From Clostridiales bacterium (GTDB lineage: Bacteria; Bacillota; Clostridia; Oscillospirales; Oscillospiraceae), in the NCBI GenBank assembly GCA_004556965.1, contig SFFE01000008.1, forward strand, positions 10,077-74,076: a stretch of 64,000 bases of DNA. The letters run 5' to 3'. Positions 1 through 55,850 of this stretch are shown here, piece by piece; positions within the stretch are counted from its first letter, which is position 1; every line of letters begins with the position of its first letter. Both the position numbers and the translations under genes were made by a program. The notes under the pieces are model-generated. The model did no database searches. It was given only the letters and a program-made list of their open reading frames with translations, and was not told the DNA's origin.

Positions 1-2
1 TG

Positions 3-821
3 TATGTATCCGGAAAGATCGTTAAGGATACTCGGCCTGTCTCTATTGGAAATGCAGATATCTATCCAATTCCATTCTTCAATCGGGACGAAGTCATTGC
101 CTTCTACCCAGATAAGAAATCTGAAATCCCCTCACAAGAGGCGGCTACAAAAGTTCTCTGTGACCACATCCGAGAGTCGATGGATCCCTCACGGGTAAAC
201 ATCATCGTCTCACATGCGTTTATCACTTCGGCAGAACTCTCGGATTCAGATCGCGCAGCTCAGGTCGGGCAAGCGACTTCTGTATCTAAAGATGTTTTTG
301 ACGGGTTCGACTACGTCGCACTCGGACATATCCACAAGCCACAGGCAATCACGGAAACGATAAGATATTCCGGTTCCCCTATCAAGTATTCCTTCGGTGC
401 TGAGGAAACTCAGGTCAAACAGGTTCTTATATACGATACGAACTCAAAAGAGATCACATCGGTCGCACTCAATATGCTTCATGACAGGAAGAGTCTTTCC
501 GGGACTTATGAAGAAATCAGTGTAATGGACAGTATTGAGAACTGCTACCTGAAGGTCACTGTTACAGACAGAATCGCCAGTTTGGAACTGCTTTCAGAAC
601 TCAGGGAAAAGTTTCCATGTATCCTGGAACTCTATGGAATGGCTTATGAAGGTTCGGGTGCTGAGACAAGCATCACGATTGACGAGCTTACCAAGCTCGA
701 TGAGACGGATATTATGATACGCTTTCTTGAGGAGCAGTATCATTTCACCCCGAGCAAGGATCAGATCAATCTCTACAAAGAAGTAGTAAAGAGCATTGGA
801 GAGGAGGCGGACTTGGGATGA
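3..821 (+). CDS. sbcD: SbcD/Mre11-family nuclease, C-terminal part (5' end upstream of window)
   Basis: Frame 3 is open from nt 3 into ORF 180..821. DYVALGHIHKPQ phosphoesterase block. ATGA overlap with the downstream sbcC start. Confidence 0.85.
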   Translation, partial: YVSGKIVKDTRPVSIGNADIYPIPFFNRDEVIAFYPDKKSEIPSQEAATKVLCDHIRESMDPSRVNIIVSHAFITSAELSDSDRAAQVGQATSVSKDVFDGFDYVALGHIHKPQAITETIRYSGSPIKYSFGAEETQVKQVLIYDTNSKEITSVALNMLHDRKSLSGTYEEISVMDSIENCYLKVTVTDRIASLELLSELREKFPCILELYGMAYEGSGAETSITIDELTKLDETDIMIRFLEEQYHFTPSKDQINLYKEVVKSIGEEADLG

Positions 822-3475
822 AACCGATCTCTGTACGATTCAAATGCTTCGGTCCTTATATGGAAGAACAGACTGTAGATTTCGAGAAACTTAGCAACAA
901 TGGGATATTCCTTATTTGTGGAGAAACTGGATCAGGTAAAACCACCATCCTAGACGCGATCTGCTATGCTCTGTTTGGCAAATCCAGCGGTGGTCTCCGG
1001 CAGGGAATCGAAGTGATGCGCTGTAAATCGGCAAAAAAGGCGGATAAGACCATTGTAGAATACATTTTTGAATGCAATGGAAACAGATACAGATTCCATC
1101 GTGAGTTGAGGTATGGCACGAAGAATCTGATAGAGGAAGATGGGTGTGAGATACTCCAAAATGACGAGTTTGTACCCATATTTCAGAATCCGAAGGCGAC
1201 CGTTGTAAACAAAAAAGCCGAGGAAATCCTCGGCCTCACGTATGATCAGTTCTGCCAGGTCGTTATGCTCCCCCAGGGTAAATTCGAAAGATTGCTTGTT
1301 TCCAATTCAGAGGAGAAGGAAAAAATCCTTACTAGCCTTTTTCACGCAGACAAGTGGAATTACATTGTCCTTGGTGTAAAGGCAAAAGTTGACGAGAAAA
1401 CTAAGCGTCTGGAAAAAGAACTGGCAGATATACAAGGCCAGTTGCGTGTTTACGCATGCACTTCTGTCGATGAGTTGAAAGAAAGAATCGCTGCTTTGGA
1501 AGAAGAGGTTGATTCTCTCACAACGGATGTTCAGAATGCAGAACAGCTCAAGCTACAAACGACAAAGGCTTACGAAGACGCCATAAAAGACAATGAGGTT
1601 TTCACTGCGCTGGAAGACTGCCGCAAAAAATTAGAATCGTTCAAACAGCAGGCAGAAGAGTTTAGTCGTAGACGAAACTCTTTGAAGCTGTCTGAAGCAG
1701 CAGATGCCATCCGGGAGATATATACAGCATATTCCGGTGAAAAAGATAATGCTGATACTGCCAAGCAGGATTTAGAAGATGCAGAGGTTGCCCTGTCTGA
1801 AGCCGAGAGATCGGATAAAGCCGCTCGAAAGGCAAAAGAACTGCATGATGCCGGTAGGGCTTCCTATGAAGCAGATAAAGAATCTCTCATCAGGCTCAAG
1901 GACGCTAGAGGGGTTTATGCCGGAATAGGCGAAAAGAAAAAAGCGGCGGAGGATGCCGCTAAAGAGGAAAAGAAAAAGAAAAAAAAGGCCGATGACGCAA
2001 AAAAAGCGTATGAAACTGCTCGTGGTCAATGGGAGAAAGCCAAGACGGCAAACGATGATGCTGTTGGAGCCTACCTTGATGTAAGCAAGAAGTATGCGGC
2101 AAACATTGCAGGGAACTTAGCTTCTAAGCTTGAGGATGGAACCCCATGCCCTGTCTGCGGAAGCACACAGCATCCTGCTCCAGCAGTGCTTCCTGAAGGT
2201 GTTTCGGTATCCGAGGATGATGTAGAAACCGCCAACCAAGCAATGCAGAACACAAGTGAGACGCTCACTACTGCTAAGACTGTGATGGATGATGCGGAGG
2301 GCAAAAACTCGAATGCTGCAGAGGCCTTTGCTGCAGCCCAAAGTGCCCTGATCGCCGCAAAGACTGCATATGAGCTTTCGCTTGAGAACACTTTCGAGGG
2401 TATCGATGATTCGAAATCTTTGGAAGCTGAGATCAAAAAGGTTGAGGGCAGAATATCTGCCTTTGAGCAGGCAGAAAAAACCGTAGCAGACGGCATCAAC
2501 GCTGCTACATCCGCGCTTAGTGCTGCAAAGCAGCGAAAAACTGATGCTCTCTCAAAAGAGTCATCTGCGAGAGAGAAGATGGTCGCTGAAGCCAAAAAGT
2601 GGGCCGCGGCGCTCGCTAAAAAAGGTTTCTCGGATGAAGCGGCGTTTGTGGCCTCATTGAAGGACAAAGAAATCCTTGTTTCGGAGCGAAGTGCGATTGC
2701 AACCTATGATGCTGATCTAAGAACCGCACAAAAGGCCTTTGATGAACAGCAAAAGAAGACCGATGGCCTCGTAGCCCCGGAAATGAAGGCATTGCAGGAT
2801 GCTAAAACGCACGCTGAGAGTGCCTGGAAAGAGGAAAATGATACTCTCACCACTGCTTCTCAAAAATCAAAGGATATGCAGAAGCTGTATGAGTCACTTT
2901 CTAAGCGCTGGGAGAAGTATCAGGTTGAAAAAACAATTGCCGATTCAAATACCGATTTTGCGAGAAAACTTAACTCCAGCACGGGACTGAGTCTGCAGCG
3001 ATATGTGCTTGGAATCATGTTAACATCCATCACAGTCGCGGCGAATCAACTCTTAAAGACTGTCCGCGGTGGCAGATACCAGCTTTATAGACGCTATGAG
3101 TCATCCGGCAGAGCCCTCAAAGCAGGTCTTGAGCTTGACGTGTTGGATACAAGTAACGGTGAAAAGCGAAGTGTTACAACGCTTTCTGGTGGAGAAAAGT
3201 TCCTCCTGGCTTTGAGCCTTGCCATTGGTCTATCGACTGTTGTGCAAGCACAGAGCGGCGGTACAAGACTGGACGCAATGTTCATCGATGAAGGCTTTGG
3301 ATCCCTTGATTCTGAATGCATTAATGACGCTATGAGTATTCTCCAGGGCATTCAGAAAAGCCATGGTTTAGTTGGAATCATCTCCCACGTTGAGAAACTA
3401 TCTGAGATCATTCCGACAAGGCTTGAAGTCGTTACTTCGGCCGATGGAAACCACATCAAGCCTATAATTGCCTGA
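818..3475 (+). CDS. sbcC: SbcC/Rad50-family ATPase
   Basis: 885 aa. N-terminal Walker A GETGSGKTT, long central coiled coil with CPVCG zinc-hook-like motif, C-terminal LSGGEKF signature and DEGFGSLD Walker B. Confidence 0.88.
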   Translation: MKPISVRFKCFGPYMEEQTVDFEKLSNNGIFLICGETGSGKTTILDAICYALFGKSSGGLRQGIEVMRCKSAKKADKTIVEYIFECNGNRYRFHRELRYGTKNLIEEDGCEILQNDEFVPIFQNPKATVVNKKAEEILGLTYDQFCQVVMLPQGKFERLLVSNSEEKEKILTSLFHADKWNYIVLGVKAKVDEKTKRLEKELADIQGQLRVYACTSVDELKERIAALEEEVDSLTTDVQNAEQLKLQTTKAYEDAIKDNEVFTALEDCRKKLESFKQQAEEFSRRRNSLKLSEAADAIREIYTAYSGEKDNADTAKQDLEDAEVALSEAERSDKAARKAKELHDAGRASYEADKESLIRLKDARGVYAGIGEKKKAAEDAAKEEKKKKKKADDAKKAYETARGQWEKAKTANDDAVGAYLDVSKKYAANIAGNLASKLEDGTPCPVCGSTQHPAPAVLPEGVSVSEDDVETANQAMQNTSETLTTAKTVMDDAEGKNSNAAEAFAAAQSALIAAKTAYELSLENTFEGIDDSKSLEAEIKKVEGRISAFEQAEKTVADGINAATSALSAAKQRKTDALSKESSAREKMVAEAKKWAAALAKKGFSDEAAFVASLKDKEILVSERSAIATYDADLRTAQKAFDEQQKKTDGLVAPEMKALQDAKTHAESAWKEENDTLTTASQKSKDMQKLYESLSKRWEKYQVEKTIADSNTDFARKLNSSTGLSLQRYVLGIMLTSITVAANQLLKTVRGGRYQLYRRYESSGRALKAGLELDVLDTSNGEKRSVTTLSGGEKFLLALSLAIGLSTVVQAQSGGTRLDAMFIDEGFGSLDSECINDAMSILQGIQKSHGLVGIISHVEKLSEIIPTRLEVVTSADGNHIKPIIA

Positions 3476-3959
3476 CAGCTTGATAACGCATCTGAGCAAG
3501 AACGTGTTTAGTTGTTTCTATATTTTCAATGCCGGAGAATCAGGCATTTCTACAGGAAAAAAAGAATTAAAAAGGCTTATCACATTGACGAAGGAAACCG
3601 ATTCGGCTTATTTGGAAAAGCGAAACATTCCGGAAACTATGCCCCGACCGGTGCATATGATTTCTCCGAGTGGAAGGACTGCTTTGACGATGATATCTGA
3701 TCAATATACGAGCACCTTCATGAAGACTTGCTGTACACGAACGAGAAGCAAGAATTTGCAGTTGCTGTACAGACCTTCGAAAAAATCAGCGCACTGTTTG
3801 CCGATATTGGAGAATAAACCATTAAAGACTTTTAATGAGGCCGCATTGGGGCTGTCCCCGATGCGGCCTCGTGCTATATAATCCCCATGAAGGAGGTGAT
3901 GCCTATGATTGTCCTTGCCTGATTTGGAAATCAAATAAAGATAAAGGAGGAAAAATACC

Positions 3960-5441
3960 ATGATTTCCAAAGACCAGTTTTTAGAGCTAAAGCACCTGAA
4001 ATCACTGGGTGTACCCACAACGACGATCGCAAAGAAAATCGGAATATCCGTGCCGAACGCCAACAAGTGGCTGCGGCTGGACGAGGAAGCCTTCGAGAAT
4101 TACCTACGGAACAACACGCCGTATCTCGAACAGTACCGCGCCTTCATCATCAGCATCCTGAAAATCTGCCCACAGACGCCGGCAACCAATATCATGTATC
4201 GGATCAAGGACCAGTTTCCGGACTTCAACTGCAAGAAAACGACCTTCTTCAGATACGTGAAAGATCTGCGGGAGCAGACCGGCTACATTAAGCCATCGGA
4301 ACGTCCCACATCCTTCCGCGAGGAAACCCCGCCGGGCTATGAGGCGCAAGTGGACTTCGGGCAGTTCAAAATGAAGGACATGTACGACCGCAACATCCGT
4401 GTGTACTTCTTCTGCATGGTGCTGTCATACAGTCGGATGCGCTTCGTGTATTTCAGCCGTGAACCTTTCCGTACAAAGACCGCCCTTGACGCCCACAAGT
4501 TTGCCTTCCGGTATTTTGGCGGCAGAACACAGACAATCCTATATGACCAGGATAGGCTGTTTGTTATCAGCGAAAAGTACGGCAATATCATACTGGTGCC
4601 GGAGTTTGAAGACTTTGTACGTAAGGCCGGTTTTAGCGTTGTACTCTGCCACAAGAGCGACCCGCAGACGAAAGGCAAGGTTGAGAGCTTCGTTCGCTAT
4701 GTAAAAGAAGGCTTTTTGCAGGGCAGGCTGTATACCGGTATAGATTCCTTGAACAGCGCGGCATTGGAGTGGCTGGATAAGGAGTGCAACGGGACTACCC
4801 ATGAGCGCACACGGAAAGCGCCGAGGGAATTGTTCCGGGAGGAATCCAAACATCTGACCAAAGTACAGACCGAGGATACTGAGGTGGCGATCCGCGCGGT
4901 ATCGGACAAGCACGCTGTTATATACGATTGGAGCAAATATGAGCTGCCACATTCCCGTGTGAAACAGTATGACACGATACGCATAGAAGAAAACGACGGC
5001 CTGCTTATGTTCTACAAAGCAGACACCGGCGAGCTGATCCACAAGTGCCGCAAATCCGCTGAAGAAGGCGGAGACATTCCATACAAAGACGATGCAATAG
5101 ACATGGAAACGGTTGGAGAAAACGCATTGCGCCGTGTATTCGATGATGTGGAAGACATCGAGAGTTTCATCGCCATGCTCCGTGAACAGAACGGCAGGTA
5201 TGCAAATTCACAGATGAACAAAATAGTCTCGTTGGCGAAGGTATACACCGTCGATCAAGTGGAATCTGCCATACTGTATTGTATCAGGGTGAAGAAATGC
5301 TCACTCAATGAGGTTCAGGCATATTTGCTTTACCGCTACGGCCTCGGCATGGCGAAACGAAAGATGACGGAAAGCACGTTTTATCACTGCAAAAAGCGTG
5401 CGGAAGAAATTGCGGAGGAACAGAATGGCAGACTTGATTGA
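3960..5441 (+). CDS. istA: IS21-family transposase IstA
   Basis: 493 aa with N-terminal HTH and a DDE-type integrase core (YEAQVDFG...). AGGAGG RBS upstream. Followed by an overlapping istB. Confidence 0.85.
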   Translation: MISKDQFLELKHLKSLGVPTTTIAKKIGISVPNANKWLRLDEEAFENYLRNNTPYLEQYRAFIISILKICPQTPATNIMYRIKDQFPDFNCKKTTFFRYVKDLREQTGYIKPSERPTSFREETPPGYEAQVDFGQFKMKDMYDRNIRVYFFCMVLSYSRMRFVYFSREPFRTKTALDAHKFAFRYFGGRTQTILYDQDRLFVISEKYGNIILVPEFEDFVRKAGFSVVLCHKSDPQTKGKVESFVRYVKEGFLQGRLYTGIDSLNSAALEWLDKECNGTTHERTRKAPRELFREESKHLTKVQTEDTEVAIRAVSDKHAVIYDWSKYELPHSRVKQYDTIRIEENDGLLMFYKADTGELIHKCRKSAEEGGDIPYKDDAIDMETVGENALRRVFDDVEDIESFIAMLREQNGRYANSQMNKIVSLAKVYTVDQVESAILYCIRVKKCSLNEVQAYLLYRYGLGMAKRKMTESTFYHCKKRAEEIAEEQNGRLD

Positions 5442-6102
5442 ACTATACGAAAAAGCACGGCTGCTGAACCTACAAAACCTCGCACACGGAAAGATCGACC
5501 TGAATCAAGAGACTGTGTCCAACATAGATTATCTGGATTACATCCTGAGTCAGGAACTGGAGCTGCGCAGACAGGCAGCCATAAAGCGTCACACCAATGC
5601 AAGCAGATTGCCGAAAAAGGATTTCAATCCGTCGAGGCTCAAGCCCGGTATCGCGTGGCAGGTGGAGCAACTCGAAAACATGCAGTGGATCGACGAAGGG
5701 CAGAACCTTGTTATCATCGGGAAATGCGATACAGGAAAAACCACACTGGCAGCGCATATAGGCCAGATCGCCCTGCGGAAGAAAGAGACTGTCTATTACT
5801 GCAACATCGAAGAATTCCTGCGCGTCATCAAGAACAAGGACAAGTCCCGCAAAACGGAGATCATATACCGTTATATGCTGGACTGCTCAGTCATTATCAT
5901 CGACGATGTAATGTATGCCAACATCATGCCGGAGGACTTACCGCTATTTTACCGTGCAGTCAGCTTCCTCAATGAAGAACGAAGCCTTATTATCATTACG
6001 AACCGCGAACTGTCCGGCTGGATCAACGCGGCGGAAGACACACATCTGATGCAGACCTTAGTGGATCGCATAACAGCAAACAGCCAGATCGTCAGGCTGT
6101 AA
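5425..6102 (+). CDS. istB: IS21-family ATP-binding helper IstB
   Basis: Walker A GKCDTGKTT and Walker B IIIDDV. GGAGGAACAGA RBS before the ATG at 5425. Overlaps the istA 3' end. Confidence 0.85.
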   Translation: MADLIELYEKARLLNLQNLAHGKIDLNQETVSNIDYLDYILSQELELRRQAAIKRHTNASRLPKKDFNPSRLKPGIAWQVEQLENMQWIDEGQNLVIIGKCDTGKTTLAAHIGQIALRKKETVYYCNIEEFLRVIKNKDKSRKTEIIYRYMLDCSVIIIDDVMYANIMPEDLPLFYRAVSFLNEERSLIIITNRELSGWINAAEDTHLMQTLVDRITANSQIVRL

Positions 6103-6275
6103 ACAAAACGGAGCTAAAGTGTCCGTTGGCCAAATAAGAATGAACGAATAAACTTGAAAACAATATCTTCGAATGAAGATTGAAAATATAGGGGTATAAC
6201 CATTCCCAATGATTTTTGAAAACCCTTAACTTATCCGTAACGTTTTAGCCAGGGGGTAGGGGGATGTAAATCTCC

Positions 6276-6875
6276 ATGCCTTTTCTATGTGGGAACGGCG
6301 CGGGGTCATTTACGAAAAATCGGGAAATCAAGAGATGGGGCTGCGCAAACCGCATCGTAAACGGAAGAGCAGTATGCGATAGTCATCATGTAAACGAAGA
6401 CGTCCTGTATGCCACCTACCACGCAGCCGTGGAAGCCATGATTGAGGATGCCGGAGCGCTCCTTGAAGTGATCCAGACTGAGACTGAGGTGGAGATGCAG
6501 CCCCGCAACAAAGCGGCAATGGACGAAGTGGAGCGGCAGATTATCGAGCTACAGGAGCGGGTGCTCGACCTGCACAAGCAGAAACGGGCGATGAAAATCA
6601 GCGACGCCTACTACAACGCGCAGGTAAACGACTACAGCCAGCAGCTCGGAGCGCTGGAGTCCCGGAAGCAGGCTCTCCAGACAGCGGACGCCCGGTATGC
6701 CACAGTGAGGATGTGGCTGGCAGACTTCCGGCAGCACATGCAGGAAGGCGACGCCACCGACGACAGGGACGGCAGCATCATGAAGACGCTGGTCGAGGCC
6801 ATCATCGTGTGGGACGACCGCATCGAGGTGCGCTTCAAGTGCGGAGCCACGGTTGAGCAGAAATATGTAGAATGA
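6276..6875 (+). pseudogene. C-terminal fragment of a large serine recombinase (second half of zinc ribbon plus coiled coil); catalytic domain missing
   Basis: The W-C-x8-G-x3-C ribbon half followed by a coiled-coil region resembles TnpX/TndX-type recombinase C-termini. The frame is closed by TAA 6 nt upstream, directly at the IS21 edge. Confidence 0.65.
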
Positions 6876-7097
6876 ACGACGCCCTCGGCAGCCGGAGCAA
6901 TAAACCGGCAGCCGAGGGTGTTTTTTCGTTGTGTTTGAGATTTTGTAGATGTTTTCAGCGTTTACCCGTGGTACAGGCCACAGCCGGAACCGGCAGCTCA
7001 AAGCGCATTTCCGACAAATATCCATCGACTTTGAACCCGTACTTGAACCCGACGCAGCAGCATGGTACAATACCGGCAGCGGAAGGACGGTGGCACG

Positions 7098-7277
7098 ATG
7101 GACACAACGAACCAAGCGGCGTGGGAGACTCTGACCCCGGAGGAAAAGCGCAGGGCTCTCTACGACCGGCAGGTGGCCACCCTGAAGACCTTCCATGAAC
7201 ACGGCGTGATCACGCAGGCGCAACACGACAAGAGTCTGCACGACCTGACCGTGAAGATGGGCTACGCAGACGAATAA
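7098..7277 (+). CDS. small hypothetical protein of the kind found downstream of serine recombinases in Firmicutes mobile elements
   Basis: 59-aa ORF with a GGAAGGA RBS. Assignment is by position only. Confidence 0.45.
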   Translation: MDTTNQAAWETLTPEEKRRALYDRQVATLKTFHEHGVITQAQHDKSLHDLTVKMGYADE

Positions 7278-7870
7278 AGGCTTTTACTGGTGTACTTTTG
7301 GGGCAAATTACCTACCCCTACGCACCGTTTGGGGCAAATACAGCATGATAAATGCCGAATTTGTCTACCAGACAGATCCGGCATTTTTCATGTTTATGGA
7401 GGCTAAATACCTGGTTTCCCTGTAATATCAACGAAAAGTTACTCCCGCACTGTCAAAAAGAACGTGCGGGAGCTCTTTTTATGGTCAAATAGTTCAGATT
7501 TTTTAGGCACCTTTTGGTTCATAATAGCTCTGCAGAAGTCTCGCTTTAAGTAAGAGGCAGAAGGCTTCGAACCCATAAATGCCGTTAGACGAATCAACAT
7601 ATGCTCTGATAATGTGCATGAAAGTAAGGCGTTTTATTTTTCAGTCAGTTTTATCAAAAAGCCTGGTTTGCGGCTGCTAGCACCGAATATTGAGGCGGCG
7701 ATTGCAAGAGGAGTGCTGGATCTCCTCAGCGACTGTACGCCGACCGAGTTCATTATTCTGTATGAGAACATGGCTTCGCTGAAGAAGCTGCTCCGCGACC
7801 ACGTGTAAAAGCAACAGCCGGTGATAGGCCCAAAGGCTTATCACCGGCTATGTTTATAACGCTAGGGTTA

Positions 7871-8452
7871 TTATGATTGTGTCAGATTTCCAAGATATCC
7901 GATGATGTTGTCGCTGATCTCGCCGGTCAGCGCACCATTGTAGTTGCAGATAAAGGTCCCGGCAATGAGGATCATCATCGCCTCGGCCTCGCGGTGCCCG
8001 ACCTCCGGACCGTAAATTGCCACGAGACACTGCTCCATGGTCTCGCGCCACTCGCGAAACTCTCCTTTGACCAGATCCGCGACCGCGTCGCTGTAGTGCG
8101 CCAGCACATAGGTCTGGGTCGTGGCGTTGGGACGCTTCTCCTCGGGATCGCCCTTGGCCACATAGGCCATGAAAGCGTTCATGTAGGCGAGGTTACTCTC
8201 ATAGTCAGCGCGCGGATGTGTCGCAAACCAGGCCTTGCATTTCTCGGTCATATAGTCCTTGGTATAGCGCAGATAGCTCACGACCAGATCGTCCCGGCTT
8301 TCAAAATAGTGCAGGAGCTTGGGATGCGACATCCCGGCCTCCTCCGCAATATCCCGCAGGGTGATCTTCGTCATGGGCTTTTTCTCGATGCAGCGTTCAA
8401 AGGCCATCAGGATCTCCATCCGGACGGCTTCTTTATCAACGATCAAAGGCAT
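7871..8452 (-). CDS. TetR/AcrR-family transcriptional regulator
   Basis: N-terminal HTH block ITLRDIAEEAGMSHPKLLHYF. 193 aa. Last gene of the minus-strand metal cassette. Confidence 0.85.
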   Translation of the reverse strand: MPLIVDKEAVRMEILMAFERCIEKKPMTKITLRDIAEEAGMSHPKLLHYFESRDDLVVSYLRYTKDYMTEKCKAWFATHPRADYESNLAYMNAFMAYVAKGDPEEKRPNATTQTYVLAHYSDAVADLVKGEFREWRETMEQCLVAIYGPEVGHREAEAMMILIAGTFICNYNGALTGEISDNIIGYLGNLTQS

Positions 8453-42993: not shown

Positions 42994-44199
42994 TCACAGC
43001 GCGTCGGTGATCTTCCGAAGATCTTCGTAGCGCACATCCTGATAATCCATGAGCTGCCGTTCCGACGTGTGGCCGATCAGCGCCAGCTTATCCTTCAGCG
43101 GCGCGTCGATGGGCTTGGCCAGCGTGGCGAATGTATGCCGGCAACTGTGCGGCGTCAGCCTGTGCGGAGGCTCGGACAGCGGCTGCACGCCTACCGCGGC
43201 GAGGACATCATAAAAAATGGCTCGATATTTTCGGATCGTCAGCGCATTTCCGTCCGGCCCGCAGAATACTGCGCCGGAGCTTCGGCCGCCGATCAGGCGA
43301 TCGACGATCGGCTGGATCTTCGGCGACACCGTGACGGTACGATTGATGCCGGCCTCCGTCTTGATTCCGCCGATAAAGGCGCGCTCCGTCTGATTGTAGT
43401 CCTCAACGCGCAGCGCGATAAATGCCGACGGCCGGAATCCAAGGTAGCAATGGCAGTAGATATAATCCGCATACGGCACCTTGCCGATTGCCTGGCGGAC
43501 CTTCTCCAGCTCTTCCGCGGACAGGCCTTGCTTGTGCCCGCTGCCGTCGGCGTCGATGCGCAGGAACGACGCCAGATTCGGCTGCCCGGACACATTCTGC
43601 GGCACGTAGCCGCGCGGGATGCCGTACTTGTACACTAGCCCCAGCACGGTTTTCGCGTTCTCCAGCGTCCGGCGGCCGTGCTCGCAGCTATCCATGCACT
43701 CCTGCAGATCGTCGATATCCTGATCCTGCATCGGCACGTCCCAGGCGTCTCGGAACACAGCAAAGCCGGACGCATAGCAATTCATCGTGCTTTTTGATTT
43801 TTTGTGCGTTGGCTGCCAGAGATCATACAGCTCCTTCAGCGTGGTTGCCGTTTTATCCTGCTCCACGGCTGGCGGCTGCTTTGCGTGCTTCGTTGGCCGC
43901 ATGTCCAGCTCCGTTCCGAGGATCGGAAGATAATTCAGCGCGTCGATGCGCCGGACGAAATCCGAGCGCGTCGCGACGATCCGGCGCTTTTTCGGCGGAT
44001 CAGAGCCGGGGATGATCTCGTAGCCCAGTGTTTTCGCCGCGCGATATTTCCCGTTTGGCTGCTTGTATACGCTTCCTTGGCCATTGCCCCTGGACTTCAC
44101 GCCTTTGCGCGCCGGCTTTTTTTGCACCTGCTTTTTGCCGCACAGATTGCAGTACAGGCTTCCATCCGGCAGATCTGCGCCGCATTTTATGCATTGCAT
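42994..44199 (-). CDS. int: tyrosine integrase with N-terminal zinc ribbon
   Basis: MQCIKCG...CNLCG ribbon. C-terminal HSCRHTFAT...IGH...Y catalytic motifs. GGAGCTAAAAGG RBS before the ATG at 44199. Confidence 0.88.
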   Translation of the reverse strand: MQCIKCGADLPDGSLYCNLCGKKQVQKKPARKGVKSRGNGQGSVYKQPNGKYRAAKTLGYEIIPGSDPPKKRRIVATRSDFVRRIDALNYLPILGTELDMRPTKHAKQPPAVEQDKTATTLKELYDLWQPTHKKSKSTMNCYASGFAVFRDAWDVPMQDQDIDDLQECMDSCEHGRRTLENAKTVLGLVYKYGIPRGYVPQNVSGQPNLASFLRIDADGSGHKQGLSAEELEKVRQAIGKVPYADYIYCHCYLGFRPSAFIALRVEDYNQTERAFIGGIKTEAGINRTVTVSPKIQPIVDRLIGGRSSGAVFCGPDGNALTIRKYRAIFYDVLAAVGVQPLSEPPHRLTPHSCRHTFATLAKPIDAPLKDKLALIGHTSERQLMDYQDVRYEDLRKITDAL

Positions 44200-44308
44200 C
44201 CTTTTAGCTCCTATGATATGATAAAAGGGCAGACTACTCCCTTGTGGTGAGGTGGGTTTTCTGTCTTGCCGTCCAGGTGTTGGTAGCGCCTGGGCGGCTT
44301 TTGTTTTT

Positions 44309-44325
44309 GTGTCCAAATTGGACAC
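44309..44325. repeat. 17-bp palindrome GTGTCCAAATTGGACAC, copy 1
   Basis: Perfect 8+1+8 palindrome, intergenic between int and the upstream gene. Confidence 0.95.
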
Positions 44326-44336
44326 GTGAAATTTCT

Positions 44337-44867
44337 TTAGACGTTCTTGTTTTTTCCGTAAAAAATTTTCCCAGCACGTAAGTTTTTGTGATAATAGCAC
44401 GACAACGCGATACCCTTATCTGGATTTACGCACCTTTTCGCGTCGCTGCACTGCTCATACCGGGAGCAGCACCCATATTCCGAAGGATATGATTCGATCT
44501 GCGCTCCGAGTATGGCCTGCAGCGAAGGTATGTATTGATCGATGTCGGGCGCGGAGCTGATAGGAATCCGTATGTAATCTTGATCGGATGGAATTATCTC
44601 TATCTTTGTATCATCCGGCAGCAGCCGAGCATAGTTTTTTGATACGGAAAAATAAGTTTTTGCGCCCTGCATCTTCAGCCTGAAAATCACAGATCGAGTT
44701 CTTCCGAGTGTCACGGAGCCGTAGTTTGATTTTGTATCCGCATAAGCTAGCTGATTCTCATCTACATAGTATTTACTAAGCGTTTCGAGCAGGGACGGCT
44801 CAACCCGCAGATATGCTATTTTCTCAGGTGTCAGAATTTCCATATCGTCAAACGTCATTTGCTCCAC
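44337..44867 (-). CDS. hypothetical protein with C-terminal Cys cluster (CC-x6-C-x6-C...C)
   Basis: 176 aa. Overlaps the 3' end of the exonuclease gene by 20 nt (coupled). Low-G+C segment. Confidence 0.55.
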   Translation of the reverse strand: MEQMTFDDMEILTPEKIAYLRVEPSLLETLSKYYVDENQLAYADTKSNYGSVTLGRTRSVIFRLKMQGAKTYFSVSKNYARLLPDDTKIEIIPSDQDYIRIPISSAPDIDQYIPSLQAILGAQIESYPSEYGCCSRYEQCSDAKRCVNPDKGIALSCYYHKNLRAGKIFYGKNKNV

Positions 44868-45816: not shown

Positions 45817-46419
45817 TCACAGCTTTGCCCGCAGCTCGACCACGCGGCCGAGGATCGTCACGGGCAGGCTCTCAATTTCTTCATTGCTATAGTACATTGG
45901 CTCGTAGGCCGGATTGCTGGGTATCAGCGTCACGCCCTGCGGGCTTTTTTTGATGCGCTTGACAGTGGCGTCGTTTCCGTTGACGAGCGCGACCGCAATG
46001 TCGCCGCTGTCCACGTCCGGCTGGCGGCGGACGATCACCACGTCGCCGTCAGAAATTTTCGGCTCCATGCTCTGGCCTTTAATCTGCAGCCCGAAGTATT
46101 CGCCATTTCCGATTTCATCGACGCTGATATCTTCCCAGTCGATTACTTCCTCGATCGCGTCGATCGGGATGCCGGCAGCCACGCGGCCGAGGACGGGGAT
46201 ACGTATGTATTCACCATGCTTTTTTCTCCCCGAAACTCCGCCAAGCAAGTAATCGAGCGTGACATCAAAATAGTCTGCAATCCGCCGATATGTATTGATG
46301 TCGGCTTCATATTTTCCGGTTTCGTATCCCGATAGTGCGGCTTGGCTAACATTTATGTCCTTCGCTAAATCAGCTTGCTTGATACCTTTTTGATTTCGCA
46401 ATTCCCTAATTTTATTCAT
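45817..46419 (-). CDS. LexA/CI-like phage repressor (XRE HTH plus S24 peptidase)
   Basis: HTH block QADLAKDINVSQAALSGYE. Cleavage and catalytic blocks AAG, GQSMEP and VKRI. Confidence 0.88.
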   Translation of the reverse strand: MNKIRELRNQKGIKQADLAKDINVSQAALSGYETGKYEADINTYRRIADYFDVTLDYLLGGVSGRKKHGEYIRIPVLGRVAAGIPIDAIEEVIDWEDISVDEIGNGEYFGLQIKGQSMEPKISDGDVVIVRRQPDVDSGDIAVALVNGNDATVKRIKKSPQGVTLIPSNPAYEPMYYSNEEIESLPVTILGRVVELRAKL

Positions 46420-50808: not shown

Positions 50809-51538
50809 AACGGTCACCGCCGTGAACATGGCGGCGATCCTCGCGACCGAGCACAACAAGCGCGTGCTCGTGATCGACGCCGACCCGCAAGCCAATGCGA
50901 CCCGATTTTTCGGCGCGCAGGATGCGCCCGCGACGCTGTGCGACCTGTTTGCCGGGCGCACCACATGCTATGACGACATCGTATGGCAGACGCAGATCGC
51001 GGGTGTGGACATCGCCCCGGCGACGATCGACCTGCTCGCGTTTGATGTCGCTGCCGCCACGGAAGAGCAGGGGATCGTCCGCATGCTCTCCGATCTCTGC
51101 ACCGCAGCCGAGGAGGATAGCGCCTATGACTATGCTATCATCGACTGCCCGCCGGGCTTTACCGCGGTCAGCATTTCCGGCATCGCGGCGAGCGACGACG
51201 TAATCATACCGGCCAAGGTGGACGCCTTTGCGATGTCCGGCATCGACGAGCTGCGGGCGCAGATCGAGGGCGTGCAGCGTGTCGGGCAGGGCATCCGGAT
51301 CGCGGGCGTGCTTGTGACGATGTGGCACAACGCGCCGGTCGTGACGCAGGGCGAGGCGTATCTCAGGAGCCAGTCTGTGCCGGTGTTCGAGACGACGATC
51401 CGCCGCACGGATAAGGTGGACGAGTCCACATTTGCCCGCCAGCCGATCAGTGACTATTCGCGCTGGTGCTCAGCCGCGCGGGACTACCGAGATTTTGTGG
51501 ATGAGTATCTCGCCAAGGAGGTGCGCATCGATGGGTAA
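50759..51538 (+). CDS. parA: ParA/Soj-family partition ATPase
   Basis: Deviant Walker A NLKGGVGKT. DCPP Walker B region. Confidence 0.88.
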   Translation: MSMKVISIVNLKGGVGKTVTAVNMAAILATEHNKRVLVIDADPQANATRFFGAQDAPATLCDLFAGRTTCYDDIVWQTQIAGVDIAPATIDLLAFDVAAATEEQGIVRMLSDLCTAAEEDSAYDYAIIDCPPGFTAVSISGIAASDDVIIPAKVDAFAMSGIDELRAQIEGVQRVGQGIRIAGVLVTMWHNAPVVTQGEAYLRSQSVPVFETTIRRTDKVDESTFARQPISDYSRWCSAARDYRDFVDEYLAKEVRIDG

Positions 51539-52997
51539 GGCGTTCAATCTGGCCGATTTCATGCCCGACGCAAATGTGTCCAAATTGGACACGCCAACAC
51601 GCGAGATCAAGATGATCCCGACGCGCAGCATCTTCCCGAACGATAAAAATTTTTATGATACGTCCAATGTGAGCGATTTGATCGATAGCATCCTGCTGCA
51701 TGGGCTGCTTGATCCGCTGACCGTTCGGCCTGCTGGCGACGGAGAGGGCTACATTATCATCTCCGGACACCGGCGGCACAAGGCCATGATGACGATTCTG
51801 GACGACGCGCTTGCAGAAGATCTCACACCGTTTGAGACGGTGCCGTGCTTCATTTCCGAGCCGCGCGACGAGCTGATGGAGGAGCTGATGCTCATCCAAG
51901 CCAACAGCGCGACGCGCGTGCTGACGTCGGCAGAGCTGGCAAAGCAGGCCGAGAAGATAGAGGAACTGCTTTACCGGCTCAAGGAGCAGGGCTATGAGTT
52001 TCCGGGCCGCATGCGTGATCACGTCGCCAAGGCGTGCAACGTGGCGGCGTCCCGGCTTGGGCGGCTGAAAGTGATCCGCGAGAAGCTGATCCCGGAACTC
52101 TACGAGCGGTTTGGGGGCGGTCTGATCCCGGAGAATGCGGCTTACGATGCGGCGCGGATGCCGGAGCGCGACCAGCAAATTCTCGCGCAGCGGCACAAAA
52201 AGGAAATCACGACGTGGGAAGTGAACAACGTAAAGTCGTGGCTTGAGAATATCAACGCCCTCACGGAGTGCAATTATTCCGATGGCGCTTGCGACCAATA
52301 CGAGGTGCGGAGCGGGATGTATCTCGAAAGAGGATACATCCCCTGCGCTGGGAAATGCTGCATGGATTGCTATAGTCTCGTCACCTGCGATAAGGCCTGC
52401 GCCAAGTGCAAGGAACGCCGAAAAGAGCTGATCGACGAACGCGAGCAGCGCGAGGAGAAGGAGCGAGCCGAACGCGAAGCGCGGAATGCCGAAGCTAAGG
52501 CAAGAGCGGATGCACGCGAGCGGGAAGTTTCGAGGCTCTGGCAGCGTCTCGGCGCGGCGCGTGAGGCAGCACATATTGCCGACGAGACATTTTACAATGA
52601 CGTGCTGGAGTGGTACCTGGACGACGAAGAAATTGAGATTATGCTTGTCCGAGAGAGGGGAGGAATCCCGGAGGATGCTTGGTTCGACGAGCCGTTTTCG
52701 GATAGTGCCGAAGATCTCCGAACGGCGGCCGCCGCGCTGCATTGCACGACGGACTACCTCCTCGGCGTATCAGACGAGCCGCAGCCGTCCAGTGCTGGCC
52801 GCTGGCGCTGCGTGGCGGATGGCGAGCTGCCGGACGAGGGGCAGGCCGTCATTATACTTTTACGATTCTCGCAAAATTCCGCTTGGTCGAGCAACACGTC
52901 CGTGTACCACAACGGCAAATTCCGTTTCACGCAGGATTTGGATATGGAACTTCGCGGCGTGCAGTATTGGATGCCGTCGCCGGAGCTTCCGGAGTAA
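51531..52997 (+). CDS. parB: ParB/Srx-domain protein with long C-terminal extension (Cys cluster, E/R coiled coil, HTH-like DYLLG segment, DUF551-like tail)
   Basis: LLDPLTVRP...ISGHRRHKA ParB box. 8-nt overlap with parA. Confidence 0.8.
   Translation: MGKAFNLADFMPDANVSKLDTPTREIKMIPTRSIFPNDKNFYDTSNVSDLIDSILLHGLLDPLTVRPAGDGEGYIIISGHRRHKAMMTILDDALAEDLTPFETVPCFISEPRDELMEELMLIQANSATRVLTSAELAKQAEKIEELLYRLKEQGYEFPGRMRDHVAKACNVAASRLGRLKVIREKLIPELYERFGGGLIPENAAYDAARMPERDQQILAQRHKKEITTWEVNNVKSWLENINALTECNYSDGACDQYEVRSGMYLERGYIPCAGKCCMDCYSLVTCDKACAKCKERRKELIDEREQREEKERAEREARNAEAKARADAREREVSRLWQRLGAAREAAHIADETFYNDVLEWYLDDEEIEIMLVRERGGIPEDAWFDEPFSDSAEDLRTAAAALHCTTDYLLGVSDEPQPSSAGRWRCVADGELPDEGQAVIILLRFSQNSAWSSNTSVYHNGKFRFTQDLDMELRGVQYWMPSPELPE
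51576..51592. repeat. 17-bp palindrome GTGTCCAAATTGGACAC, copy 3 (inside the parB 5' end)
   Basis: Encodes NVSKLDT of ParB. Confidence 0.95.
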
Positions 52998-53007
52998 AGG
53001 AGTAACT

Positions 53008-54090
53008 ATGGAAATAATTGAAATCACGTCCCAGAAGCAGCTTGACGAGCTGCCGCTTGACTACAACGGAAGAATCTGTATCAAATTCGGCACGCCGGAT
53101 GATCGCGCGATTATTCGGCATCGTTATATATATCCCGTCGAGGCGTTGGAGAACAGCAGCGTCGAGGCGTTGGAGAACAGCAGCGTCGTGGCGCGGGGCA
53201 ACAGCAGCGTCGTGGCGCGGGGCAACAGCAGCGTCGAGGCGTGGGAGAACAGCAGCGTCGTGGCGCTGGATAACAGCAGCGTCGTGGCGCGGGGCAACAG
53301 CAGCGTCGTGGCGTTGGAGAACAGCAGCGTCGAGGCGCGGGGCAACAGCAGCGTCGAGGCGCGGGGCAACAGCAGCGTCGAGGCGCACGGCAACAGTAGC
53401 GTCGTGGCGCGGGGCAACAGCAGCGTCGTGGCGCACGGCAACAGTAGCGTCGTGGCGCGGGGCAACAGCAGCGTCGTGGCGCGGGGCAACAGCAGCGTCG
53501 TGGCGCGGGGCAACAGCAGCGTCGTGGCGCACGGCAACAGCAGCGTCGTGGCGTGGGATAACAGCAGCGTCGTGGCGCGGGGCAACAGCAGCGTCGTGGC
53601 GAGGGGGAATACACGGGTGGTTGCTGCATCTAATGCGGCAGCAATTCAACAATCGGGCAACGCTCTCATCGTACATATGCCGCGCACAATTGCTGAATAT
53701 CTCGAATTTTACGAAATCGAGAACGATGGTGAAACCGCGAAGCTGTACAAAGCCGTGCACAAGATCGACGGCATTTATCGCTCCGACTACACGCCCAGAT
53801 GTACATATGCGCCCGGTGAAACAACGGAGGCAGATGCGCTCGACAAAGACCCGGACGAGACATGCGGTCACGGCATCCACATGGCGCATCTTGATTGGTG
53901 TCTTGATTATGGACGCAATTGGAGCGATCTTGCAATCATTGAGGTCGAAACCGAGACCGACGGCATTATCGTACCCCGGAGCGGAAACGGAAAAGTCCGT
54001 GCCGAGCGGTGCAAAATGATTCGAGAAGTTCCGCTTGAAGAGTGCGGCGTATATGGAAAGATTCTCGCAAAACGGAGGAGCAACGCATGA
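53008..54090 (+). CDS. phage protein built of about 20 tandem 8-residue (V[VE]A[RHWL][GED]NSS) repeats plus a C-terminal globular domain
   Basis: AAAGGAG RBS. The 24-nt DNA period at 53137-53616 is in frame with the flanking non-repetitive N- and C-terminal domains. Confidence 0.75.
   Translation: MEIIEITSQKQLDELPLDYNGRICIKFGTPDDRAIIRHRYIYPVEALENSSVEALENSSVVARGNSSVVARGNSSVEAWENSSVVALDNSSVVARGNSSVVALENSSVEARGNSSVEARGNSSVEAHGNSSVVARGNSSVVAHGNSSVVARGNSSVVARGNSSVVARGNSSVVAHGNSSVVAWDNSSVVARGNSSVVARGNTRVVAASNAAAIQQSGNALIVHMPRTIAEYLEFYEIENDGETAKLYKAVHKIDGIYRSDYTPRCTYAPGETTEADALDKDPDETCGHGIHMAHLDWCLDYGRNWSDLAIIEVETETDGIIVPRSGNGKVRAERCKMIREVPLEECGVYGKILAKRRSNA
53137..53616 (+). repeat. about 20 near-perfect 24-nt tandem repeats (GTCGTGGCGCGGGGCAACAGCAGC consensus)
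   Basis: Direct reading. Variation is confined mainly to codons 2, 4 and 5 of each octad. Confidence 0.95.
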
Positions 54091-54243
54091 GCAAGCTGAA
54101 AAAATCGCTGGACAAGCTCGCATCAATGGCCGTTCTAACACTCGCAGCCACTTGCTCAGCAATCGGCGCGATCTGGTTGCTCGGCGCGGCGTGCAGTATT
54201 GGCTGCCGTCGCCGGAGCTGCCAGAGTAAAGGAGGACGATGAT

Positions 54244-55090: not shown

Positions 55091-55850
<760 letters not shown>

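Follow-up and report, generated by a model that had tools for sequence, protein, structure and literature searches.

An octapeptide-repeat protein of a Clostridia prophage with a putative RIIB/Gad2-type domain: a candidate counter-defence factor

What might a temperate phage do with a protein built around some twenty near-identical octapeptides? The question is raised by a gene at positions 53008 to 54090 of a 64,000-nt stretch of DNA from a Clostridiales bacterium (contig SFFE01000008.1; this whole stretch is hereafter the window), which had been singled out, from the letters of the sequence alone, for its consecutive 24-nt repeats. The analysis reported here outlines a protein comprising an N-terminal cap, an array predicted to form a beta-helical rod and a C-terminal domain that appears to be homologous to the C-termini of phage T4 RIIB and of the anti-Gabija protein Gad2, encoded by a gene whose array is continually rebuilt. 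This combination of architecture, homology and array dynamics is, taken jointly, very probable. The favoured reading as a whole, a prophage repeat protein that uses a RIIB/Gad2-type module and a turning-over array for counter-defence, we hold to be moderately probable.

The repeat gene and the turnover of its array

The repeat gene comprises the following features, given in window coordinates.

53008..54090, + strand: repeat-protein gene (360 aa; N-terminal cap, octapeptide array and putative RIIB/Gad2-type C-terminal domain), from open reading frame (ORF) and translation
52996..53002, + strand: ribosome-binding site (RBS) AAAGGAG, 5 nt before the ATG and inside direct-repeat copy 1 (see below), read from the sequence
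53008..53136, + strand: N-terminal cap, aa 1-43, with the motif ITSQxQLDxLPxDYxGRIxIKFGT, kept across the family; predicted local distance difference test (pLDDT) score ~95
53137..53616, + strand: 20 near-identical 24-nt units encoding V-[VE]-A-[RWLH]-[GED]-N-S-S (protein register), in register with the octapeptides of T4 gp5C
53617..53640, + strand: degenerate 21st unit (VVAASNAA) at the end of the array; the VVAAS ending also occurs in close relatives
53449..53520, + strand: run of three identical units, of which the independent prophage copy L001 has two (19 versus 20 units)
53695..54054, + strand: putative RIIB/Gad2-type core of the C-terminal domain, aa ~230-349, the Pfam DUF7666/DUF5758 region, with matches from Pfam, PHROG, Foldseek and hhalign

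The gene runs from an ATG at 53008 to a TGA at 54088-54090. The original prediction had divided its product into a 43-residue N-terminal region, about 20 repeats of 24 nt and a C-terminal domain of about 150 residues with a CGHGIH motif, and this division stands: the cap spans aa 1-43, the array holds exactly 20 units plus the degenerate 21st, and the C-terminal domain (hereafter the C-domain) measures 152 aa, its core displaying the motifs LYKAVHK, CGHGIH, LAIIEVE, GKVRA and IREVP. The C-domain itself had been left unrecognised; as set out below, it is most probably a RIIB/Gad2-type module (DUF7666).

Tandem Repeats Finder delimited the array at 53152-53606, with a period of 24, 19.0 copies, 88% matches and 0 indels, and eight units are identical base for base. 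The proposed concentration of substitutions at repeat positions 2, 4 and 5 is evident at the codon level, with codon 2 toggling between GTG and GAG (V/E), codon 4 taking the forms CGG, TGG, TTG, CTG or CAC (R/W/L/H) and codon 5 the forms GGC, GAG or GAT (G/E/D), and the invariance of N-S-S-V-x-A holds in units 1-19. Compared with the consensus, the 19 core units present 2 synonymous codon differences (AGT for AGC) and approximately 21 non-synonymous ones. The variable positions are strictly coupled in the window's array, R or H being followed by G and L or W by E or D; as a rule for the family this coupling was dropped, since the positions are nearly independent across it. Five of the six frames are devoid of stops across the array, rather than all six as had been claimed, the third plus frame containing four stops. 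The spurious ORF calls that the array was said to have created are those at 53018..54019 (+), 52927..54162 (-), 53111..53629 (-) and 53124..53585 (-).

The nearest relative of the encoded protein, P0002, is identical to it except for one missing unit (19 versus 20). Its contig, L001, is an independent metagenome assembly (MEGAHIT) of the same prophage, in which all the unit variants occur in the same order. The window and L001 present 0 mismatches over 13,087 nt, and differ only by one 24-nt unit, the gap falling in the run of three identical units, and by an (AG)17 versus an (AG)15 tract. Relatives with N- and C-domains 84-100% identical carry 4, 5, 7, 10, 14, 19 or 20 units, and these arrays differ in composition. 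Furthermore, in 76 arrays from viral contigs the share of the dominant synonymous codon at the V, A, N, S and S positions has a median of 1.0 within an array, whereas the codons used differ between arrays, including AGY versus TCN for serine. Uniformity at synonymous sites within arrays and divergence between them imply that the array is continually rebuilt by unequal recombination or slippage. Judged from this codon usage, the pattern is one of concerted evolution, in which selection would keep the peptide and recombination or slippage would regenerate the DNA. These observations support the recent or ongoing copy-number change that had been suggested for the locus. They do not support its description as a contingency (on/off) locus: the unit comprises 24 nt, or eight codons, so that all length variants remain in frame and the array is not an on/off switch, its variation being instead one of length and composition.

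That the array or its length might be an assembly artefact, a danger acknowledged in the original prediction, we consider highly improbable. Approximately 27 of 80 viral contigs with family members (L020-L099) end inside the array, and the Logan unitigs of four gut metagenomes, in which array length was checked within samples, also break inside it. This tendency of short-read assemblies to break in arrays means that many family genes in databases are truncated and that their copy numbers are unreliable. Against an artefact, however, the independent MEGAHIT assembly spans the array with the same unit order, the longest exact repeat inside the array is 61 nt, and such arrays are present in hundreds of assemblies, including a closed 1.2-Mb circular contig and the Sanger-era genomes of phages Che8 and BPP-1. 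The metagenome scan identified no further near-identical alleles.

A second alternative holds that the array acts as DNA, serving as a centromere or iteron for the ParA/ParB-like pair, with its translation being incidental. The location of the array directly downstream of parA and the parB-like gene and its five open frames would be in line with such a role, but the same octapeptide is encoded with different synonymous codons across lineages, and the preservation of the octapeptide despite these codon differences indicates that selection acts on the protein, not on the DNA. The same architecture is also found beside unrelated genes without ParAB, and the differences among units are nearly all non-synonymous toggles. 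Hence, we regard a DNA-level function as very improbable, and the array is treated below as a protein feature undergoing concerted evolution.

A word-indexed search returned at least 1,761 significant matches to the repeat protein, and an exhaustive HMMER search with the C-domain yielded 457 clusters at 50% identity. The common architecture of the family consists of an N-domain of approximately 45 aa, a number of octapeptides with the consensus N-S-S-V-[VE]-A-[RW]-[GED], and a C-domain of approximately 152 aa (DUF7666). Among the top 121 matches the arrays hold 3 to 25 units (median 13), without a bias towards multiples of three, and the three variable positions are the same throughout the family. 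The pattern of variable positions and the near-identity of units at the DNA level are family-wide properties, not peculiar to the window's genome. The hosts given in genome records are mostly gut Clostridia (Oscillospiraceae, Ruminococcus, Lachnospiraceae and Acutalibacteraceae), together with some Bacilli. A literature search for papers mentioning DUF7666 or DUF5758 found none. The family is widespread and uncharacterised, and the window's gene is a typical member of it rather than an outlier.

A sub-family (P0189, P0205, P0206, P0212 and P0214, among others) presents 9-residue units, such as NATIKDVYD or MRESSQVKE, before the same C-domain, and several of these proteins display super-periods of 27 residues (three units).

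The C-terminal domain and a possible role in counter-defence

By profile comparison, the C-domain is the same domain as Pfam DUF7666 (PF24703), which matches 47 of 69 close relatives and scores above its cut-off in Bbp36 of Bordetella phage BPP-1 and in gp59 of phage Che8; DUF5758 overlaps the first part of the DUF7666 region. The C-domain is also matched by the PHROG RIIB families 609, 11221 and 2886. A Foldseek search against BFVD returned 26 matches at E<1e-3, nearly all the named ones being RIIB ("protector from prophage-induced early lysis"), and these matches extend over 113-152 aligned columns with a root-mean-square deviation (RMSD) of 2.2-3.5 Å and a Foldseek probability of 1.0. Residues 196-308 of T4 RIIB aligned with the C-domain profile in hhalign (95.7%, E 9.7e-9), and tblastn located the C-domain in the rIIB genes of over 100 T4-like phages as well as in three SPbeta-like Bacillus phages. 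The Pfam DUF7666 model did not match T4 RIIB, and no PDB sequence matched the C-domain profile at E<=10.

The link with Gad2 goes through a close homologue. The C-terminal ~100 residues of Goe11_c01130 (397 aa) match the C-domain profile (98.1%, E 9.3e-14, 32% identity), and this protein carries a nucleotidyltransferase-type GG...DVD motif. The supplement of 10.1101/2023.05.01.538930 lists SPbetaL7 ORF_159 as Gad2 (400 aa), with the same N- and C-terminus as the Goe11 protein. These profile and structure comparisons argue strongly for homology of the C-domain with the C-termini of both T4 RIIB and Gad2. Only 2 columns are invariant across the window's protein, Che8 gp59, Bbp36, T4 RIIB and the Gad2 homologue, and RIIB, Gad2, Bbp36 and the family have no conserved set of catalytic residues in common, which suggests that the module probably binds or acts as an adaptor rather than being an enzyme.

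An ADP-ribosyltransferase was considered and rejected as an identity for the C-domain. Foldseek against PDB gave the rifampin ADP-ribosyltransferase Arr (2hw2) with a probability of 0.80, but with an E value of 0.13 and a template-modelling (TM) score of 0.38, and neither E-x-E nor CxxGIH is conserved in Che8 gp59, T4 RIIB or Gad2.

Three proteins of ~640-660 aa (P0225, P0232 and P0239) have a PcfJ-like domain, known from proteins of conjugative elements, fused to the RIIB/Gad2-type C-domain, and the BFVD matches include giant-virus proteins in which the C-domain follows ankyrin repeats or DUF4116.

The two characterised relatives of the C-domain counter host or prophage defences. RIIB is required to overcome RexAB; it is toxic when expressed, and gasdermin/CARD systems sense it as their trigger (10.1101/2023.05.28.542683). 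Gad2 of SPbeta-group Bacillus phages overcomes Gabija (Yirmiya et al., 10.1101/2023.05.01.538930). By analogy, the repeat protein would be a counter-defence (anti-exclusion) factor produced in the early phase of infection or induction, in which the conserved C-domain would supply a RIIB/Gad2-like activity, probably binding or adaptor in nature, and the beta-helix would provide an evolvable spacer or recognition surface. The fast turnover of the array might then reflect an arms race with host or prophage defences, since its rebuilding would change the length of the rod and the order of unit types, always in frame. For the anti-defence role taken by itself, we judge the case to be evenly poised. 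A further step, whereby the three outward residues of each rung would make the array a combinatorial surface that retargets the RIIB/Gad2-type module to new defence proteins, or hides the module from sensors, is rather unlikely. If true, temperate phages would diversify a counter-defence protein through repeats, by a route other than diversity-generating retroelements, and this would be a tractable family for learning what the RIIB domain does.

Several points weigh against a counter-defence function or against parts of the evidence adduced for it. According to Liu et al. 2004 (as related in PMC2884959, a paper on mycobacteriophage Tweety), Bbp36 is dispensable and has no bearing on tropism. 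In the window's protein the DUF7666 score, at 23.8 bits for the whole protein and 26.2 bits for the C-domain alone, falls just short of the gathering score of 27. Homology with RIIB and Gad2 points to a role, not to a mechanism. The C-domain joins partners as diverse as helix-turn-helix (HTH) domains, nucleotidyltransferases, PcfJ and ankyrin or pentapeptide repeats, and might be a module of general use that can occur without any anti-defence function. No rIIA-like or HATPase gene was found among the genes called between the repressor region and the portal, 13 kb around the repeat gene. The expression check returned only wastewater metatranscriptome contigs of 90-95% relatives, which possibly contain DNA. 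Lastly, the single-unit difference between the window and L001 could be an assembly effect, a caution reinforced by the contigs that end inside arrays.

Early operon and mobile cassette

From ~43 kb onward the window is a temperate prophage, organised as follows.

42997-44400, - strand: tyrosine integrase
leftward module, listed between integrase and repressor: RNase T-type exonuclease
45820-46419, - strand: CI/LexA-type repressor
48486, rightward early operon: replication initiator
49256, rightward early operon: DnaB helicase
50678, rightward early operon: ParA
51534-52997, rightward early operon: ParB-like protein with a DUF551-like tail
downstream of the repeat gene: 51-aa membrane ORF, DUF4406 protein (nucleoside deoxyribosyltransferase-like), N6/N4 DNA methyltransferase and HUH Rep
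after Rep: late genes for TerL, portal and major capsid protein

The start codon of the repeat gene lies 10 nt past the stop of the ParB-like gene. No sigma-70-like promoter or + strand terminator separating the repeat gene from its neighbours was found, and a strong promoter cluster is located at 46.4-46.5 kb. Its operon position and the lack of a promoter or terminator of its own mark the repeat gene as non-structural and early. It is an accessory gene of the rightward early operon in a temperate prophage. Searches with PADLOC and NCBIfam returned no match.

A 50-nt direct repeat flanks the repeat gene and the small membrane ORF that follows it.

52953..53002, + strand: direct-repeat copy 1, made up of the final 14 codons and stop of the ParB-like gene (its DUF551-like tail) and the RBS
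54185..54234, + strand: direct-repeat copy 2, left over from that same 3' end and RBS and matching copy 1 at 94% identity, before the DUF4406 gene
54087..54242, + strand: small single-pass membrane ORF, 51 aa, with an ATGA start/stop overlap with the repeat gene

The DUF551 match of the ParB-like tail has an E value of 0.0037. In 11 related viral contigs the site is empty, the ParB-like gene being followed by DUF4406 within ~45 nt. Conversely, a 91-93% identical repeat gene is found on an unrelated backbone (L007), after an antirepressor gene and with an 84% identical small membrane ORF directly 3' of it. The repeat gene moves as a cassette, in the window's lineage together with the small membrane ORF. 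The last ~20 codons of this ORF are direct-repeat copy 2 read in another frame, which indicates that the recombination joint gave the ORF a new C-terminus. The small membrane ORF was rejected as a family-wide partner, and is a companion in the window's lineage only: the downstream gene varies by locus, encoding a membrane protein in approximately one third of cases and otherwise a methyltransferase, a PAPS (3'-phosphoadenosine 5'-phosphosulfate)-reductase-like protein or a macrodomain protein. At two loci (L029 and L040) a macrodomain-like protein (MLINKTGDVL...GVMGGGLALQ) lies directly downstream, its gene overlapping the stop codon of the repeat gene.

The cassette structure bears on a third alternative, namely that the cassette would guard the lysogen, as a module for lysogenic conversion or superinfection exclusion, with the membrane and repeat proteins acting at the envelope. 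Its moron-like arrangement within the 50-nt repeat, the empty site in the 11 related phages, the small membrane ORF that accompanies the gene in the window's lineage and the membrane protein immediately downstream in approximately one third of the family loci are all consistent with such a module, as is the fact that RIIB is toxic and sensed by other defence systems (10.1101/2023.05.28.542683). Yet the cassette lacks its own promoter and a flanking terminator and reads as part of a long early lytic operon, PADLOC returned no match, both characterised relatives of the C-domain act in counter-defence rather than defence, and different family loci have different downstream partners. We therefore deem an exclusion module distinctly unlikely, and retain counter-defence as the preferred function.

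Two further observations concern the surroundings of the cassette. An (AG)17 tract at window positions 55192-55225 puts the N6/N4 DNA methyltransferase gene (55091-55850) out of frame, while the L001 prophage copy, with (AG)15, has an intact 242-aa methyltransferase gene; the tract looks like a slipped-strand on/off switch. In addition, near 8 kb the G+C content of the window climbs from 0.45-0.51 (positions 1-8000) to ~0.60 (8000-36000).

Fold of the array and comparison with known systems

An AlphaFold2 (AF2) monomer run with a 69-sequence alignment produced a model with a mean pLDDT of 85 and one beta-strand of 4-5 residues per octapeptide; the pLDDT of the array ranges from 63 to 95, with 63-75 in its middle, and that of the caps exceeds 90. 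A Foldseek search with the whole chain against PDB found nothing significant, right-handed beta-helix lyases and tailspikes appearing only at E > 0.06. In phmmer the repeat aligned in register with the octapeptides of gp5C (PDB 1k28, 4jj2 and others; E 1.5e-5), GNGTILVK and GNVTIIVE of gp5C corresponding to GNSSVVAR here. The PHROG baseplate-hub families 430 and 27932 also match (E 2e-6 to 3e-5), and Gp5_trimer_C and the VgrG-family DUF2345 match a few family members. Positions c, e and g of the octapeptide reportedly face inward in the gp5C structure that Kanamaru and colleagues described in 2002. Transferred to the repeat protein, this register would place S, V and A inward and V/E, R/W and G/E/D outward or at a corner, in which case only three outward residues per unit would vary, with small alphabets (V/E, R/W and G/E/D), and S, V, A and N would be fixed. 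The ~21 octapeptide rungs are hence predicted with considerable assurance to form a beta-helical rod.

The original prediction had proposed a beta-solenoid with variable surface positions. The AF2 strands, the gp5C register and the three predicted exposed variable sites speak for it; the solenoid may be a gp5C-like homotrimer instead of a single chain. The homotrimer constitutes the remaining alternative: the array would be an intertwined triple-stranded beta-helix similar to the gp5C needle, ~100 Å long for 21 units, and the protein a trimeric rod or spike. The in-register phmmer match to gp5C and the baseplate-hub, Gp5_trimer_C and DUF2345 matches speak for a trimer, with which the absence of a mod-3 bias in copy number and of a robust three-unit super-period would also be in line. 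On the other side, AF2 yields a confident fold for the single chain (a monomer run, however, being blind to a trimer), the gene occupies a non-structural early operon here and in Che8 and BPP-1, the protein contains no OB-fold or lysozyme domain, the gp5C match could reflect convergence of simple repeats, and some lineages do show super-periods, their arrays fitting best at 24 or 27 residues, although a lag of three units is not distinct family-wide. A trimer is therefore possible but doubtful. It could be directed to the membrane, which would suit both the association of RII proteins with membranes and the small membrane ORF beside the gene, and it is compatible with the counter-defence reading.

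Comparison with gp5C itself delimits this likeness. The two share the octapeptide period and the residue pattern G-N-x-[ST]-[VI]-x-[VA]-x, but gp5C is a virion baseplate protein and an obligate intertwined trimer, whereas the repeat gene is non-structural, its place being in the early operon, flanked by the ParB-like and DUF4406 genes, and not in a baseplate or spike structural module, and the likeness may be convergent.

T4 RIIB, along with rIIB-like proteins from T4-like, N4-like and further phages, shares with the repeat protein a C-terminal domain that is very probably homologous, and is likewise the product of an early, non-structural gene. T4 RIIB differs in having an N-terminal HTH (matched at aa 7-50) and a middle region in place of the cap and beta-helix, in working with RIIA, no rIIA-like gene being present near the repeat gene, and in stemming from lytic myoviruses, whereas the repeat gene resides in a temperate phage of Clostridia. 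Gad2, too, shows the C-terminal homology and, like the window's gene, is a phage accessory gene in a variable locus; it differs by its N-terminal nucleotidyltransferase-type domain and by lacking both repeats and CxxG[IL]H.

The same three-part build is present in gp59 of the mycobacteriophage Che8, together with gp51 of Squirty and gp59 of ThetaBob. Che8 gp59 has 11 GSAHVVAW units and a DUF7666 match of 46.8 bits, and both it and Squirty gp51 are encoded in the right-arm non-structural region, comparable to the early location here. Its unit sequence and actinobacterial host are different, and it is annotated only as a hypothetical protein. Che8 encodes two distinct repeat-array proteins two genes apart, gp57 and gp59 (2776-3639 and 3995-4801 of the examined Che8 segment, L002), and PMC2884959 discusses gp57, a tetrapeptide-repeat protein, alongside Tweety gp54.

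T4 rIIB is among the oldest genes of molecular genetics. The present comparison indicates that the C-termini of T4 RIIB and Gad2 are one module, which hundreds of lineages of temperate phages (from gut Clostridia, actinobacteria and Bordetella) have fused to a predicted beta-helical array, and the length and surface of that array change very rapidly. This provides a comparative handle on the module, in that it reveals which of its residues are truly conserved, points to a binding domain and supplies natural variants of length and surface. New here are the recognition of the C-domain as the counterpart of the RIIB and Gad2 C-termini, the quantitative account of concerted evolution and the cassette structure; VR2 of Bbp36 and the Pfam DUF7666 family were already known.

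Bbp36 is a described precedent for array variation. In the account given in PMC2884959, which recalls Liu et al. 2002/2004, bbp36 of the Bordetella phages BPP-1/BMP-1 holds "VR2", a 24-bp element present in 9-20 copies depending on the isolate. In BPP-1 Bbp36, DUF7666 (41.7 bits, aa 21-116) comes with the motifs CGHGLH and YVLEV and is followed by ~14 GTATAGYR octapeptides. The order of the parts is reversed relative to the window's gene, DUF7666 being N-terminal and the array C-terminal; GTATAGYR takes the place of the unit NSSV[VE]A[RW][GED], an N-terminal cap is absent, and the host is proteobacterial. Nevertheless, both genes fuse a DUF7666-type domain to an in-frame array of 24-nt octapeptide units, both are non-structural early-region genes of temperate phages, and in both the copy number varies, among isolates in the case of Bbp36 and, for the window's gene, among near-identical phages as seen in assemblies rather than in long reads. 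VR2 of BPP-1, a 20-year-old puzzle, would in this light be explained as one case of a general property of the family.

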